A stretch of DNA of 64,000 bases, taken from Lophium mytilinum. Lineage: Eukaryota. The DNA lies in the NCBI GenBank assembly GCA_010093605.1, contig MU004189.1, positions 1,867,834 to 1,931,833 on the forward strand. Reading direction: 5' to 3'. The notes beneath the pieces were generated by a model, which saw only the letters and a list, made by a program, of their open reading frames with translations, did not search any database and had not been told where the DNA came from. The first letter of the stretch is position 1. Each line of letters starts with the position of its first letter. Positions 5,669 to 48,015 of the stretch are shown one piece after another. Position numbers and translations under genes: made by a program.

Positions 5669-7626
5669 AGTGATGGTGGATTCGAGATTGATTGACGAAT
5701 GTGGGTTGATCGAAGAAGAATGGTGCGAATTGACTGATGAAGAATGGGTTGACTGGTTGATGAGGAACCTGGGAGTGAGAAGGGGAAGCCTTTATGTACT
5801 TGTCAGGACCGGGAAGTAGCGAGCATGAATCGAGACTGCGTTGATCTCTCGCCTTCCTATAGACCCTGTCTCTTTTTATATTTATCCCAATTGCCCGGCG
5901 CCTGCCGCTGTCATGGTTGGCATGGAGGTCGCAAGGCGATCATCGCGACGGCCAAATTTTGGGGAACGGGTCGGACCACCCCCAACGACGTCAATCATTA
6001 GTCGCACTCGACCGCCTGCTTCTCTCGGGAGCCGAGGTGAGGCTTAGGGAGGGGCAAGTCTGTGTGTAGGTCGCCGTGCGCCGCCCTAGTTCGTGTAGTG
6101 CCTGTGTACGAGCATTCGCCACTGTTTAGTTACTTCAATATCAAAGAGTGAGTAGTATGTACAACGCAGTTCCTTCCCAATGTTTGACTACGCGGCTTGG
6201 GGTGACCGGAAAGCCTACAGGATATTCTAGATGAAGTATCCACATCTCGTGTAAGTGTTGATTATTTGTGAGGCACTCTTGACGAAGAGTGTTCAGAGAT
6301 TGATGTCCTGATGAATTATCACCTCATTCGCGATCTCGTCCAGATTTCGAGGACTAGTGAGCATACCAAGGAGCAACTTACAAGTGTATTATGGAGTGCG
6401 CAACTATAGTGGATCTCGCCTTGCCACAGCTGTCCTCATGTGCCAGATGTGACGACAGTTCGGAGTGAAGCCGGCGAAGATTCACAATGTTGCATCGTGA
6501 GGAACCATGAGCATCAGTGCGTAGGCACAGGGGCCACCTGCATCACATCCCTCTTTTAGCGCACAAGCCCACTTACAGCTCAACGGTTGTCGATCGGGGA
6601 CTGCGAGGGTATTGCAAGTTACTTGCCGACGCTGCTTTCGGAATGGAATTGAGCGTACCTACCGCGATAGCTTCTTGAATGTGATGCAGTGCGACGACCA
6701 GTCCACAAACAACGTTGCTCCGCGCAATAATCGCATAGTCTAAACTTAAGGTTCCAGGTCACGAAGTCCCGGCATCTTGCTGCCGTATGTCCAAAATAGA
6801 GGAGACCATTCGGGCCGCCCACGGCCCCTGGAAAAGTGGTCATGAGGCCTGGAGAAAAAGTACAGTCGTCGTAGAGACGAATAGAACAGCCATCCATCGG
6901 ATCCGGGAGTTCTCGTATTTCTTCCAAATCGATAGCACGGTAGAGCCATATTAAGCTATATGCAGCCTCGGTATTGGATATTTCCAGGCTGAATCGTGGC
7001 GATCCTGCAACAAGGGTTGAACCATCTCGAATGCGTTGTCCAGTCACAGCCCGAAAGTGCCGGACGTCGCGGTTGTGACGAGCGCCAAGTGGCGGTTGTG
7101 GCTCTTTAAGCTTAAAACGGTTACTATTAATAGACTCCTTCTTTTGCTCGTGTCCACTTTCACTATACCGGAGTCATGTTGCCTCCCTCGTTTCTGCAGT
7201 GATCTGTGGGTACGAGGACAGCTGAAACGTGACGTCTGTAGAACATAGATAATGGACAGCAAGCGATAGGATATGCATAATCGATTTGGTAATGGAAATT
7301 GTCCTTTGGGTCACCTTCTGAACCCTCTCGATGCTCCGACGTCCCGAGGGAGCATTTAGCAAGGGGCAGCTACAATTGAAGGCCTGATTGCCTCACGCCC
7401 GCCTGGTTGATCGCATCCAACCTTGGGAACCCCAGCACTGCACCTCGTCGCCAAAGAGCCCCTTGTATACTGGAGTCTCGCGTTGCTTGTATGTCGGCAA
7501 GAAACTTGTGGTCAAACTAATGTGCGACTCTTGTACAATTGCAGCTGCCACCGCCACAACTAGCATTGTACCAAATGCTTTACGCTGAGTACAAAGGTTC
7601 ATCTCTAAAGACCGTATTCGTCGCAA

Positions 7627-14683: not shown

Positions 14684-15266
14684 GCCAGGTGGACCGGATT
14701 CATGAGCTCGGCCACCCCAACAAGGCAAGTATGAAGAAGATAAAAAGGCGGGAACGATGGGGACTGAGGTATTCGGAGGTTTTCTAGGAATCAAGGAAAA
14801 ACGATCCCAAACCAATAAACTCACGGTACCAGATATTGAAATCTCTCTCGAATTCTCTCTTGAAACGCAGCCTGCCACCCTTAGAAGATTGAAGACGGCA
14901 ACTCTTGGCACGACAGCAGTGCAGGTGTAGAAGGCAGAGAAGTGCATCTAGACTCTGTGAAATCCTTCCTTCGTCACAGACTGAGAGTCGAGACCGTTTT
15001 GCCGTAGAGGAAAAAGGAGCTCAGGCCAGCCTCGCCCCTGCCAACGGGCAACGATCACCTGTCAGGCGCGACAGCCGTGGCGTGGCCCAGACAGATCCTC
15101 GAGCTTAATCTTATCAGCACGTACGGCACGTGTGCTCCACTTTTCACTAGCGCGGTTCTGAAAAATCTTCTCTATACATCCTCCGTCCCCCGTCGTTTCT
15201 GCCTTTTTCTCTTCTTCATACTTACCTTGTTGGGGTGGCCGAGCTCATGAATCCGGTCCACCTGGC
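14684..15266. mobile_element. MITE-like non-autonomous DNA element with ~86-bp terminal inverted repeats
   Basis: 14684-14769 is the reverse complement of 15180-15266 (GCCAGGTGGACCGGATTCATGAGCTCGGCCACCCCAACAAGG... identical for ~40 nt, then a few mismatches); no transposase ORF inside. Confidence 0.8.
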
Positions 15267-21940: not shown

Positions 21941-22478
21941 ATGTATCTGCGACCATTCCAGTGAGTTCCAGATTCTATCTCATGCCTATCTTCCCTCCGC
22001 TAATAGCAGTAGTGACAGCTCTTCCGCTACCACCCTCACAACCACCCAGCCCTACCGCACCTGCATCACCTGCGGCACCTACTACACCACCGACGGCCCG
22101 GCGGCCGCCTTCTACGACTCCATCGGCCGCCATGACCTCCCGCCGCTCCTGTGCAACTGCCCGCCGTGCGCGAAGGCGGAGCTCCACGACACCGTAGCGC
22201 TGTGGGATCGAGCGCAAAAACGAGGCGTCGGCCCAGCGCTGCTAGAGCGGAAGATCCTGCTGCGGGTGCAGTGGAATATGTACGAGAAGCGGAGGGAGTC
22301 GGTCGAGGTCGAGGAAGTCGATGAGGTGGATTGCGCGAAGGGGGTGTTGGTGCTAGAGCCAGAGCCGCCGTGTGGGAAGATAGAGTTGGGGATTCGACGG
22401 GTCCGGAGGAGAGCGGGGGGGTTGTGGAGTGGGTACTGGTGGAGGAGGACTGCGCCGTGTGCGTGTGTGTTCTTGTGA
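21941..22478 (+). CDS. Orphan ~159-aa protein with CxxC...CxCxxC motif and C-terminal CaaX (CACVFL)
   Basis: ATG 21941, exon 1 20 nt, intron GTGAGT(21961)...GCTAAT...CAG(22018), then an open frame to TGA 22478; TATATA at ~21703; codon skew like neighbouring genes. Confidence 0.65.
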
Positions 22479-23754
22479 GGACTGCGTATCATGTGGGAAC
22501 ACTGTATCATTATATGGGTGGGGTTTGCTAAGTGGTCGCTTTTCGGTGGTCCACGATTTCTGTGGTTGGTGGCTGTTTATAGACTTCTGAGCATACGATC
22601 TTTATGTCCGTCGTTCGTGTAATATGCCCTTCGTGCTTGTTGGGTCGTCGAGCTCGACCGTTCCCTCTTACCTACTCAATGTCGCGCAGTTGGTCCAAGC
22701 GTCTACTCAGCCGCCAACTCTCCGTTCCCTTTGAAAACGATACCCGCCACAACGTACTTGTGAGTAGTAAATATATACTAGATCACTCTAAGTGCTCTGC
22801 TGGTATTCATTAGCTATCTTTTATTGCTCGGAAACACTTCGTGGACGCGACGTTTTCATATAACTCCTCTTAAATCCTCGCCAAGCCACTTGATGCTCCA
22901 CAACCCAAGGTGTTTGAAAACCACGGCCGCCACGGCCCTTTCTAGCTAGTGCCGTCTACATGGTAGTATTTCGAAAGCTCTGTTTCGTCATACTGCTCTA
23001 TAATTTCCCAGGAAAAAAATTCTCCGCGCGTACGGTTTTCAAACGAAGCCTCTCAAGGCAGATGCCAAGCCTCGTTTTTACCCCTTCAGTGCTCTATATC
23101 AGGCCACCACAACACCCAGCTGTTTAGCGAACACATTGGCCTAGCTATTTGCTGTCCTGAGTATCTTGTATCAGGGTTTGGCGTAATTCCAAGACTGTCA
23201 ATGTCTTTACTCTATATCAGGTATTGATTCATGTGAACAACACACAGTTTGGGTATGTTATCAAGATGAAGAAGAATGATTGATACCTAAAGTGTATGTT
23301 TGGTATCAGTAGTATACTAGAAGCCATAGAGAAGCGTTATTCCTGCATGTAACGTCGCATAGTGTGTTTAGAGGGTGTTTTGATCTCAAGTGAGGCTGCT
23401 TTTGCGGGACCCGGGGAAGAGAGAAGGGATTAAAGCCAACGCCAACGTCGAGGATACCAGAATACCAAGCAAGGCCAAGGTATAAAGAAGCAGATGGAGC
23501 GAAAGTATTCATATATTTAATATAGGTATGTTATATATCGAGTGCTGGTCATGCACATATATCACCACCACGGAAACCCTATGCAGAAGGTGTACCATTC
23601 TCAATATGACTAAAGCCACACACCGTCGGCGCGCACGAAGAATCATCAAGAATATCAAGTAGTAAACGAGTCTATACAGTCTATACTCAACGCTGTCCCA
23701 GCGGAGCTACAAGAATGATCAACAGGAACGAATGAGTCCCGACAACACGCCGCC

Positions 23755-24600
23755 CTAATTTGGATCCGAGTGCGCACGGAAGCCCTTCAGCATCTCCTCA
23801 TCTAGCTTTACTCCAAGCTTCTGCGCCATAGTAAGGAAGCCGTCCTCCTCATTGGTAATCCAAAGATCGACCCAACCATCCCTCCTCGCCTGCTCAACCT
23901 CCTCCTTGCTCCAGTCCTCTTCCCGGGGCCTCTCAACATAAATGACCTGCATTCCATGCGACTTAGCAGCCTTGAGATCATTTAGATGGGCAGCTACCAT
24001 AGCGCAGTCGGATGGCTGTAGATGGAGGGCGGAAGCCGCACCAAGATAGACCGTCGGAGACGGCTTGTAGGCACCGAAGAGCTCCGCGCTGAAGATATGC
24101 GTGAACTTCATCTGAGCATGGGCGGTAAGATCGTTCAAGAGGCTGAAGTTGCCGTTGCTAAGCGTCGCCGTCTGGAAGAGTCTGTTGAGCTCCGTGATGC
24201 CGGGCGAGGAGTCCAGCCACGGGTTGAGTCTGTGCCAGATCAGGCTCAGGGCTCGAACCTCCTCGTCTGCCCACAAGCCCTCGAGCTTCCACTCTGCTAG
24301 GAGCTCCCGTATGGAGTCTAGGTGATGGTCGTCAATAGTCTTCCAGTGCAGTGACGGATCAGCGGCCAGCGTCTTCGTGAAACGCTTGTAGGTATTGCGC
24401 CATTCTTGAGCGAGGTTGCCCCAATCTTCGACTGTCATGTTGGATGCCTTGAGGCGCACAGCGCTTGAGAGTGACTTTTCAGCCGAATCCAACGCGCGGT
24501 GTGACCCGAGTTCGAGGGCATCAGTGACAGTGGTGCGCCAATCAACGCAGGTGCCGAAGACATCGAAGAAAAGAGCCTTTGGAGCCCGTGGGAGCACCAT
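23755..24600 (-). CDS. Haloacid dehalogenase type II (HAD superfamily hydrolase)
   Basis: KALFFDVFGTCVDWR (motif I), TLSNGN, YKPSP and MVAAHLNDLKAA; intronless; ATG 24600 preferred over the in-frame ATG at 24696. Confidence 0.92.
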   Translation of the reverse strand: MVLPRAPKALFFDVFGTCVDWRTTVTDALELGSHRALDSAEKSLSSAVRLKASNMTVEDWGNLAQEWRNTYKRFTKTLAADPSLHWKTIDDHHLDSIRELLAEWKLEGLWADEEVRALSLIWHRLNPWLDSSPGITELNRLFQTATLSNGNFSLLNDLTAHAQMKFTHIFSAELFGAYKPSPTVYLGAASALHLQPSDCAMVAAHLNDLKAAKSHGMQVIYVERPREEDWSKEEVEQARRDGWVDLWITNEEDGFLTMAQKLGVKLDEEMLKGFRAHSDPN

Positions 24601-24688
24601 GCTGACGTTGATGATTCTGGGACTGGGGAGTGGAATGACAGATCTAAGGTCGATGTCGATCGCGCGAGACCGCCGTTCCTTTATGATG

Positions 24689-25508
24689 TTGACCATGCTG
24701 GGTTAAAAATACCCGACGTAATCCGGATCCGGCGCAGCGGGGCGGAGGAGGGGTAGGAAGATCTATTGCACCCCTCGGACATCAGTCTGGAACGCTGCGA
24801 GGTGGATGTGAAGCTCGTCGCTAGAATTCCAAGGCCAGCTTGGATGTTCTGGTGATGAACTCACACTTCCCGAAGCTGTGACAATGACGAGTACTCCAAT
24901 CCAAAACGATGGGAAGACCGGGAAGACTGTTGACTTTGCGAGAGAGAATTCCTGCCCGCCATGCTGAAGCATACTTGACCTAAAGGTAGCGACTGCCTTT
25001 GTCCAGCAGCGACTGCTAGCTCATGTAACGTTGATGCTGGTGTTTCGACTGCCATTACGTTTCTAGCGGTCGTTGGTTCGCATGTGCCGGATGCAGCTAG
25101 TTGAAGCTGCCCGTCGTTCGGACATCACGAAGACCCTGAAAACATGCGAGACTGGTAGCGACTGTCTCATCATCAGGGTCTCGGTTGACGTGCTGGTGAT
25201 GGCCATCGGGAAGCCGTATCAAGGTTGCGTCGGGCCGTAAGCCACGAACACGTGATCTCAACCTCATGTCTTGGCGGTGAACGGCGACGGGAAGCGTTGG
25301 GCAGGGCGAGGGCGTGGTGGTACCTAGAAGGTTCTTGACTGCTTTAGGACACTATACAGAATCGTAAAAAGGTCTCTATGCGCCGATTGCCTGAGACCGA
25401 ACACCTAATACTCACACGGACCTCGAAGCACGGTTTCATAAGGCAGACGCGACGCGATGTTGTGATTTGCAGGACGCGTTCCCTGATGCAGTCATGGTCA
25501 AGCAAGGC
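24689..25508 (+). ncRNA. Candidate large structured non-coding RNA (identity unknown; telomerase-RNA-like 3' features)
   Basis: No coding frame; >12 mutually compatible helices, several needing G-U pairs on the + strand; terminal stem 24689-24700/25489-25501; ATAAGT at 25509-25514. Confidence 0.55.
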
Positions 25509-25714
25509 ATAAGTCACAAGCAGAAGAACAGAGGTTGATGTGGCAAGCGGATGATGGATTATTTGGTATCATTGTTCCATGATCCCGTCCCGAAAACTCC
25601 AAAGCCTATGATACAGCAGGCTAGCAAATCCCCATTGACCCAACCCATCCAGCTCCGCCTTGGACCCGAAGGCAGGCAAGTCATAACATTGAAAACATGA
25701 AGTAGAGAAAGCAA

Positions 25715-26161
<447 letters not shown>

Positions 26162-26636
26162 GATGATAGAGGTAGTGTGGAGTGAGGAGTCTTAGAGACT
26201 TGAAGTTGCTGGACGGTGATGGAGTTGTGGAGAGCGGTGGTTGTTGTTGAGCTGATGGTGTTGGAAGAGAGGAGGGGAGGGCGGTACTTGAAGAGGCGAG
26301 GGCCACGGCGGATCAACTTCGGATCACCAGTGGCCGGCTGGCACCTCGCGTATCGAAGTTGCAAAGTTGCCCGTGCGCCAGCAAACTCGCCTGCCCGAGT
26401 TTTGATGTTCCTGCGCGCGCTTTCCAGCGCTGCCACGGCCCGCCTGGAAACGCGCTAAAAATCACAACAAGCTGTGATCCAGTAGGCAGCTGCCGCCCCC
26501 GCCGTGCCCATAAGTACTCCGCCCGCCCACCTCGCTCCTCTTTCTTTCATCATCATCCACCAACCACCACTCCACAACAACTTCTCCATCAACTCAACAC
26601 CACAACCCATCTCTACAAGTCTCATCATCATTCGAG

Positions 26637-27277
<641 letters not shown>

Positions 27278-28836
27278 ATGGTTTCTCGGTGACCATCCGC
27301 CTTTGTTCCTGTCGACAACTTCTCTCAACATGGCAGGATATCTACGGTGATGGCAATGGTTGGGGATTGTTTTGGCGTTTGGGATTGAGGCTTATCAACG
27401 ACGGCTCTGGGGTTATGGGTCTTTCACGGTTCACTCAAGGGTGATACCAATGGTTATGCGATGTACATTACCCATAATCAGTCTACACTGGAATCATATG
27501 ACGAAAGTCATTAACTATACTCTGTTCTCTTTGCGATTGTGACTGCTCTTGAATTTGACTACCGTCTAATGTGAGCCTTGTTTGAGAATATGGCGACCCA
27601 GCCTCTCGGTCGCAATATATCCCGGGATTCCACGTCGTGACCTTGCCATCGCTATTTTCATACGCATCACGTTCGACGTTCTAATGCCTACCTCCCCTTG
27701 TTATCCATACATTGAAGAATGTCATGACTATCATGAGTATATCTCGTGATACGTCTCGTACCAACTCCACGCAACATCTCAGAGTCATCAATCTTTGCCA
27801 CCCAACCCCTCTATGTAGCCTAGATTGCGAAGGATCGAATGTCTTACTTGCGCTTCTCTATTATGAGTCACCACTTCATCACTCTTGTTGCGTTTGACCC
27901 GGTGATTAGAGGCTGAGAGGCAGAAGGCGGAAGTCCTGCGCAAATTTCGATGAGAACCTTGTGGAACATGCTGTCGCGATCTGGAAAATCCACAGGGATT
28001 GGGAGCTGTTCTTGGGCACGAGTTGGATCCTTTCAAATGCTTATGGGTCGTGTAGTAGAGGAAGCTGTGAAGTCGGAGGTGTACAGAGGTCATGAAGCGG
28101 CGGGATGAAAGTCCAATTTATGACGGTGAATAGTTGGCTCATATTCAGGTAACGGAGAATTTAGAGCATTCATGGTGAGGTTTGATGACGGTACGTGTGT
28201 CTAGGCTATAAGGTGATTACATATAAGAGATTCCTACCCAGCCTTCGACGCTGCATCCTCGTCTCAGCAATCGCCTCCAGGCTGCGAAGCTGGCTACACG
28301 TCTCCTACTAGCCCTTGCGTTTCTAAAGTAACTTGTTTAGCTGTGTTTCATTGTCGTGGACTGCTTTCTGCTATGATGATGGCAGCTGGTGATGAAGATG
28401 CAACTGGAATGGGTACATTTTTGAATCAACGCTATCGCTATGGACAAAGTGCACAGAGACTTTGAAACGATCTCAAGACGTGACAGAAGAAGTTTTTTCT
28501 TTTCGAGAAGTTGTAATATATGACATAGAGGAAATCGCGTGGACTTTTCCACCCACACTCTACAGAAAAGGATGCGCTGATGATTAGAGAACTATTGAAG
28601 ATATTCTCTGGCTTCGAATGCCGCCTTAGACAAACGAGCAGACCGGTAAATCGTTGACAAGCAGTAGGCAGGCGGCGCATACCTTTGCATGATGGAGAAA
28701 TAGTACCTCAAAGCTTCAACTTCCTCGGACCGATCTAGCACCCCGCTATGACGCGACGCTCACCCGGAGGGCCTTCCGTATGTAAAGTGAGAGAACCGTA
28801 GCTTTCAAATGCATCTATCCTGCATAATAGCACGAA

Positions 28837-29464
28837 ATGACTATCCAACAAGAACTCAATTCGCTGTGGGCGCCTACCAAGGTGGAAACTGGTCCAGTGC
28901 CAGCTCTTGGACAGCAGGCTCCGTCTACGGAGAGGCTGCCAATCCTAAGTTTCGGTGGTAAACCGACCGTGGTGACATTCCTGAGGCATTGCGGCTGTCC
29001 TTGTGAGTGCTACTGGGATGATGATAATGCGATGGTTGCGCTGACGTTCTACAGTCGCGGAAAAGACCTTCATCTCTTTGCGCAAGACCGCAGAAGATCA
29101 TCCAGATATGCGGTTCATCGCAGTATCGCACAGTGACCGGGAGTCTACGGACAAATGGCTGCGGGCTGTAGGAGGCGCTGATCAGGTCAGTGTCATTGTG
29201 GATTCAGATAGAGAGCTGTTCGGGCGCTGGGGCCTTGGAGTTTCCGGCTACTGGCATATGATGCATCCTGCTAGTATGTGGACGGCCGTTCGCTTGGGAA
29301 GGGAGGAGAATATCTGGAACAGGCCTACGGAGAGTGGGTCGAGATGGCAGACTTCTGGGAGCTTCGCTGTGGATGGAGAGGGGAAGGTGAAATGGGGAGG
29401 GGCAGCGCCACGGGCGGATTACATCCCTTCGTTTGAGGAGGCCGTGGAGTCAGTCTCGAAGTAG
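28837..29464 (+). CDS. Peroxiredoxin-like 2 / AhpC-TSA_2 thioredoxin-fold protein
   Basis: VVTFLRHCGCP|FAEKTF motif across an intron (~29003-29054); C-terminal GSRWQTSGSFAVD. Confidence 0.82.
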
Positions 29465-47170: not shown

Positions 47171-48015
47171 TGACGTTGAAGGTGGGCGGCTGCGCGAGGG
47201 ATTGGCTCTCTGTGCCCGGCGTCTGTTTGATGGCGATGGTGTCTGTTTCTTTACTCCCGCTGGCCTCCCGCCGTCGAAGCGGCGTACGTATCAATTCTTG
47301 GCTGACGCGCAACTTCGAGGTCTGCATCCCTGGCGCAGGGGCCGAACGTTGCACTGTTTCCTCGTAGCAACCAGTCGAGCACACAGGCCCTTGGCCATCC
47401 TGGAACACTCTCCCTCCGAGTAATCAAATCCTGTTCTGCCTCTTTCGCCCCAATATCTCCACCTCACACCCTCGCTGCTGCATCGACTGTGCCCTTTTCG
47501 CCTCCTGCACCTCTATCGCCGCCAACACCCGCCTGCATACTGCTGCGCCTCGTCCCCGCGACAGCCCCCACGAGTCTCGACCACCACGACTTACGAGCCC
47601 TTCTGAGCTGACACCAGCCGGAAGCAGCGGTGCATTCGAATTGCCTCCTCCTGTATCCTCTGCCTCGCCATCCTCTGCGCTCCTCCAGCTCGATTTCTCT
47701 GCCGTAAACACCAACACCGCTGTTGCCAGGTCTATACATTCCCAAAACAAGTTCCAACCTAATCTACAAAGCTTGGCTGGCGTTACCCATATACGCCACC
47801 TCGCACTCCTCTTTTCAGCTGAAGCCTTGCCAATTTCCACTCATGCCTCCGCCGCGGTTGGCCCTTTCTTGATTGCATTCTATCCGTCTTTGTCACTCGC
47901 TTTACGGTTACATTAAGCTTTTCTCGACCTTCCATCTAGATCCGAACCCCCTCTCCCTTAGACTCGAGCCTTGCCGATCCTCCTCCTCCTCCGAGCGCCC
48001 AACGCTCTCCCCACA

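Follow-up and report, generated by a model that had tools for sequence, protein, structure and literature searches.

Strand-biased folding in a hairpin-rich spacer between a HAD-type hydrolase gene and histone H4 of Lophium mytilinum

The DNA analyzed here is a stretch of 64,000 nucleotides from Lophium mytilinum (NCBI GenBank assembly GCA_010093605.1, contig MU004189.1, positions 1,867,834 to 1,931,833 of the forward strand), hereafter the window, and all coordinates are counted from its first letter. The region of interest lies between a gene for a HAD-type hydrolase and a histone H4 gene (Table 1), and the latter is divergent from a histone H3 gene starting at 26637 on the + strand. As both HAD and H4 are encoded on the − strand, the spacer between them (24697–25714) contains the 3′ flank of H4 together with the region upstream of HAD. 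The HAD ORF extends to 24696, while the database copy of this same protein has 281 amino acids, which places the start codon at 24600; the long form (313 aa) has 32 extra codons upstream (24598–24696). Since the Pfam domain of the long form does not begin before residue 40, the first 96 nt of the ORF are probably 5′ leader. All relatives of the HAD protein that carry names are Dothideomycetes (e.g., Lepidopterella, Amniculicola, and Melanomma, 61–67% identity) and the best non-self match is 72% identical, meaning that the collection searched contains no close sequenced relative. The spacer had been described as free of ORFs, and indeed each of the six frames of 24697–25714 is interrupted by 7 to 16 stops. 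Over 24500–25800 the + strand is devoid of T runs of four or more and has seven A runs of four or five (i.e., T runs on the − strand), with T5 present on the − strand at 24705–24709 and at 25366–25370.

Table 1 Features of the HAD–H4 locus (positions within the window)
Feature	Position	Strand	Remark
HAD-type hydrolase gene (2-haloacid dehalogenase-like)	23755–24600	−	PF00702, E 5e−15, from residue 40
Interval of the original prediction	24689–25508	+	Beats folding controls on + only
TATA-like TTAAAAATA	24703–24711		Read from sequence; putative promoter element
Folding core, 525 nt	24711–25235	+	−221.7 kcal/mol
Hairpin A, 83-nt imperfect hairpin, 34 pairs	24794–24876	+	Present in all fold contexts tried
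Hairpin B, 13-bp stem closing a smaller hairpin	25007–25075	+	One copy of AGCGACTG inside
Hairpin C, 9-bp Watson-Crick stem plus inner stem	25125–25188		DNA-level palindrome
Unstructured part of the spacer, probably H4 3′ flank	25301–25714		z +1.29 on +, +2.69 on −
Histone H4 gene, two introns	25715–26161	−	Splice sites read from sequence

The original prediction had taken 24689–25508 for one large structured RNA transcribed from the + strand. The minimum free energy (MFE) of this interval on the + strand is −322.17 kcal/mol, corresponding to z −4.8 with 20 shuffles and to z −4.0 with 180 dinucleotide shuffles, none of which folded as well (mean −287.1, sd 8.8, best −309.9). A compositional artefact caused by the alternation of G-rich and C-rich blocks was ruled out, as z stays at −4.7 when the shuffling is confined to 41-nt blocks (0 of 60 as good). 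The − strand is ordinary, with z −0.83 (5 of 20 shuffles as good) and, after block shuffling, z −1.05 (9 of 60 as good), and the comparison with shuffled controls that had been suggested for this interval was consequently passed on the + strand only (z −4.0 to −4.8, vs. −0.8 to −1.05 on the − strand).

Two genomic backgrounds were compiled from the window, both with 6–10 shuffles per window placed and with sd fixed at 8.5 and 7.0, respectively, which makes their individual values rough. The first consisted of 820-nt windows placed every 1600 nt (77 of the 78 planned window-strands, reduced to 73 by removing the four at the target locus) and gave a mean z of +0.45 (sd 1.09, range −2.85 to +2.76). 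The second was restricted to 525-nt windows in 19 other gaps lacking any ORF of at least 110 aa (102 window-strands; mean z +0.28, sd 1.02, range −3.03 to +2.65), and on its scale the target (24703–25227) scored −4.44 on the + strand and −1.88 on the − strand, being the most extreme among 108 ORF-poor window-strands. The next most negative values in the window were found on the + strand at 14700–15224 (−3.03) and 6801–7620 (−2.85). The excess folding of the + strand is real.

The signal is narrower than the 820 nt that had been assigned to it. In a 200-nt scan, it was present on the + strand only within 24701–25000 (z −4.45, −2.81, and −4.05) and partly on both strands within 24951–25300 (z −2 to −2.8), and z was positive from 25301 onward, so that the final 200–270 nt of the predicted interval are not structured and the claimed extent shrinks to 24711–25235, with positive z on both strands throughout 25301–25714. 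This core reaches z −5.37 on the + strand, where none of 40 shuffles folded as well, and −2.15 on the − strand. Much of the folding signal is carried by three local hairpins of 64–83 nt, designated A, B, and C. Hairpin A folds with −40.7 kcal/mol on the + strand (z −5.79, 0 of 200 shuffles) and −28.3 kcal/mol on the − strand (z −2.93), and its pairs include 5 G-U among the 34, along with one C-A mismatch and small bulges. For hairpin B the values are z −4.18 on the + and −1.80 on the − strand, and hairpin C is equally stable on both (z −2.69 on +, −2.90 on −).

The architecture proposed for the interval, a nested set of long-range helices enclosing local hairpins, was less robust than its individual elements. 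All 15 helices that had been listed proved to be complementary at their coordinates (two of them with the bulge already assigned to them), and in the partition function of the + strand of 24689–25508 seven of the 15, namely the outer helix and six local hairpins, had a mean pair probability of at least 0.66. Among the remaining ones, one was found at 0.22 and seven at 0.01 or lower, leaving five of the six proposed long-range helices without ensemble support, and the MFE fold prefers other long-range helices instead (24713–23/25223–33 and 24727–40/25078–92). The sequence was also refolded within three alternative boundaries. In 24401–25714, 9 of the 10 core helices were kept, including hairpin B and the long-range helices other than the outer one; in 24201–25900 five of the 10 were gone, as were four of the nine testable ones in 24601–25400. 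The outer helix disappeared in both larger contexts (24401–25714 and 24201–25900). Lost from both 24201–25900 and 24601–25400 were the two long-range MFE helices, hairpin B, and the hairpin at 24982–25000, and therefore the long-range helices and hairpin B occur in just one of the three contexts (hairpin B being absent from the other two), whereas hairpin A, 24748–76, 25093–110, and hairpin C persist in all three. Given this dependence on the boundaries, the nested long-range helices are one among several near-equivalent pairings and do not amount to a defined architecture, and this part of the prediction was not borne out.

Stems continuous only with G-U pairs on the + strand, and thus broken by A-C mismatches on the − strand, had been put forward as pointing to a + strand RNA. 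The description is true of the MFE structure (37 G-U among 282 pairs), but MFE folding itself selects G-U pairs. The fold of the core has 22 G-U pairs vs. 5 symmetric A-C mismatches. When only Watson-Crick pairs were allowed, the symmetric mismatches of the core comprised 8 would-be G-U pairs on the + strand vs. 4 on the − strand, and the mirror fold of the − strand gave 7 and 3 for the same count; this unselected measure shows a weak 2:1 lean, which is not significant. With G-U pairs forbidden, the core still had z −3.09 on the + strand and −1.53 on the − strand, and simple complementarity of the DNA therefore explains some of the excess. Between the strands, z(+) minus z(−) amounted to −2.56 at 525 nt, where one of the 51 background windows was as negative (−2.76; the next −2.52), and to −3.29 at 820 nt, with a background sd of 0.99 and a minimum of −1.97 in 36 windows. 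Hairpins A and B are more stable on the + than on the − strand by 12 and 11 kcal/mol, respectively. The strand bias is real but moderate.

A positive control is available 1 kb away, at the divergent promoter of H4 and H3. The stretch 26001–26820 scored z −5.19 on the + strand and −4.44 on the − strand, and −4.39 after block shuffling. Upstream of H4, the G/T-rich segment 26096–26268 mirrors the C/A-rich H3 leader (26543–26591) as an imperfect inverted repeat (71–87% complementary), and these DNA-level mirror repeats account for the z-scores of the promoter. The leaders of H4 and H3 have mirrored motifs of the CAACAAC/CCACCA type in common. Like the target, this promoter is intergenic and promoter-proximal, with single strands folding 4–5 sd better than shuffles, and it follows that a z of −4 to −5 at this locus can come about from mirror repeats in the DNA without any RNA gene. 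The two differ in that the strands of the H4–H3 promoter score alike while the + strand is clearly stronger at the target, in that the promoter repeats are of low complexity while the target arms are complex sequence, and in that the first 525 nt of the promoter have no signal once G-U pairs are forbidden.

Known RNA families were searched for by several approaches. With Rfam 15, none of the 4227 families, among them RNase P/MRP, SRP, U1–U6, U3, snR30, telomerase RNAs, group I/II introns, and ribozymes, reached its gathering score anywhere in the 64-kb window, and a lax scan of 24400–25900 returned four matches only (E 1.8–9.5, 12–14.9 bits vs. gathering scores of 37–46). Large fungal ncRNAs (RNase P, MRP, telomerase RNA, U3, snR30, and SRP) likewise span several hundred nt and contain many helices, but none of their Rfam models matches the interval even at E up to 10. 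To our knowledge, large structured ncRNAs beyond this universal set are almost unknown in fungi. In C/D box snoRNAs, a C box (RUGAUGA) and a D box (CUGA) are joined by a terminal stem. A GUGAUGA is present at 24851–24857, within the 3′ arm of hairpin A, with no terminal stem seen by eye, and at 24848–24901 the models sR7 and sR42 score 14.9 and 12 bits, below their gathering scores of 37 and 38, respectively, so that this segment does not qualify as a member of that class. The template of telomerase RNA corresponds to about 1.5 telomere repeats; no template 9-mer of the TTAGGG type with at most one mismatch was detected in or near the interval, and the whole window has two one-mismatch matches (at 47902 and 50224; 6.4 expected). 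ARAGORN found no tRNA genes in 22000–29000, which speaks against a tRNA or a tRNA-derived SINE in that region.

What defines a milRNA family is a set of small RNAs that depend on Dicer or Argonaute; these are discrete, about 19–25 nt long, and derived from one arm of the precursor. Hairpin A has the size and shape of a candidate precursor (an imperfect hairpin of about 60–150 nt): it is intergenic and imperfect, spans 83 nt with 34 pairs, and in this resembles fungal milRNA precursor hairpins (e.g., PMC4425646). An RNA from the HAD–H4 spacer was not met in a limited search of the literature on introner-like elements, Dothideomycetes ncRNA/RNAz, and milRNA hairpins.

Homologous loci were sought in metagenomes. 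The HAD protein produced 115 pattern matches among metagenome contigs, none of which was confirmed, and a 21-nt pattern of the H4 3′ end yielded 100 metagenome loci from mixed eukaryotes, which were used for the homology searches. Against these 100 loci, blastn of 23755–25714 had no match at E 0.01 or less, a wider blastn query matched only at the coding parts of H4 and H3, the lowest E value of a tblastn search with HAD was 2.1, and nhmmer of 24601–25714 had no match at E 10 or less. The closest H4 gene in this set was located at 2122–2521 of a 597,593-base metagenome contig (L022), with 83% identity over 405 nt, intron-containing sequence included; the contig is probably a fungal genome assembled from metagenome, and the HAD neighbour is absent from it. 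Downstream of this H4 gene, no folding signal was found (z −0.86 to +2.45 in 16 window-strands), although this is a weak comparison because the gene next to H4 is a different one. Shared words were counted in 16 sequencing runs, of which a single one contained most of the stretch (share 0.80); this run is not recorded as RNA, and as its 33 million letters would suit a fungal genome as well as a transcriptome, it has no bearing on expression. The 11 runs recorded as RNA contained 0.07–0.12 of the query words, about the size of the H4 exon within the query, which is no evidence on the expression of the spacer.

The core begins 15 nt from the first ATG of the HAD ORF, its distance to the start codon of the database copy being about 110 nt, and its 5′ edge adjoins the TATA-like element, about 100 nt upstream of that start codon, all of which would suit a putative HAD promoter. 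A + strand gene at this place would need its own promoter inside the HAD 5′ end. Short motifs recur in the spacer as well: CGGGAAG is found at 24919, 25207, and 25288 on the + strand and at 24866 on the − strand (4 of the 16 copies in the window), the latter forming at 24865–24874 the sequence TTCCCGAA, a TTCnnGAA palindrome, and AGCGACTG is found at 24988, 25008, and 25157 (three of the six copies in the window). These enrichments were spotted post hoc and would fail a correction for all k-mers.

The interval is probably not one ornate RNA of 820 nt: the boundary-dependent fold, the unstructured 3′ end, the mismatch count of 8 vs. 4, and the H4–H3 control all weaken the claim of a nested RNA. 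Instead, we tentatively favour a reading in which the signal stems from the DNA itself, its source being imperfect inverted repeats and recurrent motifs in the spacer upstream of HAD. The stretch of about 525–600 nt (24711 to 25235 or 25300) is a patch of unusually high self-complementarity just upstream of HAD, composed of three imperfect hairpins (64–83 nt) and of short motifs in both orientations, and these repeats and motif clusters may have a cis-regulatory role or may be neutral remnants of sequence that was duplicated and inverted locally. Strong folding on the + strand would then be a by-product, with most transition differences between the arms happening to yield G-U pairs on this strand, and its cause would lie in the DNA rather than in an RNA. 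Several observations are consistent with such an origin. The core follows right after the TATA-like box, a place in which one would look for the HAD promoter, and the signal is partly symmetric, as seen from the G-U-free z on both strands, the equal stability of hairpin C, the z of −2.93 that hairpin A retains on the − strand, and the values of −2 to −2.8 reached on both strands by 200-nt windows in 25001–25300. The lean toward the + strand is weak in the count that is not selected for G-U pairs, the long-range helices change with the fold boundaries, short motifs (CGGGAAG and AGCGACTG) recur, no known RNA family fits, and the promoter of the histone genes provides a positive control nearby. 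Arguing against it, the + strand was the stronger one in every test, with an advantage of 12 and 11 kcal/mol in hairpins A and B, and the lack of + strand T runs of at least four over 24500–25800 suits an uninterrupted + strand transcript. Moreover, the helix arms do not have one common palindromic motif, unlike a simple array of binding sites, a hairpin of 34 pairs exceeds the usual protein-binding palindromes, and the motif enrichments are post hoc.

The first alternative to this DNA-level origin is a lineage-restricted + strand ncRNA of about 0.5–0.65 kb, divergent from HAD, converging on the 3′ end of H4, and built from hairpins A, B, and C, of which hairpin A could possibly give rise to a small (milRNA-like) RNA. 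What recommends it is the z of −4.0 to −5.4 on the + strand relative to full and block-wise shuffles and to both genomic backgrounds, set against just −0.8 to −2.2 on the − strand, as well as hairpin A, with its z of −5.79, five G-U pairs, and a single C-A mismatch. The absence of an ORF in any frame and of + strand T runs of at least four is also in line with it, and as no known family matches, such an RNA would be new. However, the overall fold varies with the boundaries chosen, mismatches counted without bias number only 8 vs. 4, the site is the expected place of the HAD promoter, the H4–H3 promoter equals its z-scores without an RNA gene, and the region downstream of the nearest H4 relative found (on contig L022) lacks a folding signal (a weak argument, as HAD is not the neighbour there). 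We therefore consider it rather unlikely, if not to be set aside lightly, that the core (perhaps extended to about 25400) is an uncatalogued + strand RNA that could act as a precursor of small RNAs with a cluster of hairpins, or as a structured transcript whose synthesis would link the activity of the HAD promoter to H4 3′-end formation.

It is improbable that the interval represents chance, i.e., an outlier within the ordinary variation of folding energies that was singled out by eye during a very extensive scan. Very many windows had been read beforehand, the long-range helices change with the boundaries, and helices of 11–14 bp including G-U pairs are expected in 525 nt (by our estimate about three of 11 bp, with about 38% of base pairs able to pair). 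Against this, the target falls short of the mean of the 102 ORF-poor window-strands by 4.6 background sd, with none close to it, its native energy was reached by 0 of 180, 0 of 60, and 0 of 40 shuffles, and hairpin A alone has a z of −5.79.

A decayed structured repeat, either a foldback/MITE-like or an introner-like element, was evaluated as well. The interval is similar to MITE/foldback elements in its imperfect inverted repeats, in DNA that can form hairpins, and in the short inverted repeat of 9+3 bp at its termini (24689–24700/25489–25501), the left arm of which falls on the first ATG of the HAD ORF, and its hairpin arms differ mostly by transitions. It departs from these elements in that no target-site duplication surrounds the terminal repeat (the flanking bases differ), in that this repeat measures just 9+3 bp, about two inverted repeats of 9 bp being expected by chance in 1 kb (estimate), and in that it is not repeated within the 64-kb window: blastn returned no second copy of the interval there, only the self-match and one 14-nt match (E 0.72). 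An ancient tandem duplication of 344 nt was also tried and discarded, since the two repeat pairs suggesting it, spaced by 343 and 344 nt, were at chance level and blastn gave no internal match, and the G+C content of 54% gives no sign of heavy RIP in the region.

Introner-like elements (ILEs; Collemare et al. 2013, PMC3609843) are spliceosomal introns inside genes, present in hundreds of near-identical copies in Dothideomycetes and other fungi, longer than ordinary introns and of low predicted folding energy, and ILEs of Dothideomycetes with stable predicted structures are also reported in PMC4457414. The HAD relatives belong to this class, in which such stably folded multicopy elements have been reported (PMC3609843, PMC4457414), and the interval is like ILEs in having an unusually low, strand-specific folding energy, lower than that of ordinary sequence. 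Yet ILEs are intragenic, while HAD and H4 are both on the − strand and no + strand ORF flanks or spans the interval, and ILEs come in hundreds of copies where the interval is found once within 64 kb. An intron in the 5′ UTR on the − strand, from GTGAGT at 25414 to CAG at 24698, was rejected as well, its branch-like TTAAC being too near the AG and the fold being on the other strand. With imperfect arms, a minimal terminal repeat, and the fungal class in its favour, and with the single copy in the window, the missing target-site duplication, the intergenic position, and the unremarkable G+C content against it, a decayed repeat seems the least credible origin of the spacer.

The spacer is thus statistically real, unexplained, hairpin-rich intergenic DNA, of a kind that is familiar. 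If the + strand RNA were real, a poorly sampled lineage of Dothideomycetes would have a structured RNA of about 0.5 kb that is not yet catalogued, which would be of moderate interest and would not on its own open a long-standing question. If the DNA-level reading is true, the value of the locus is methodological, as it would mean that in this genome a promoter-type spacer can fold 4–5 sd beyond its shuffles without an RNA gene, and strong folding of this sort without an RNA gene is directly demonstrated by the histone promoter next door.
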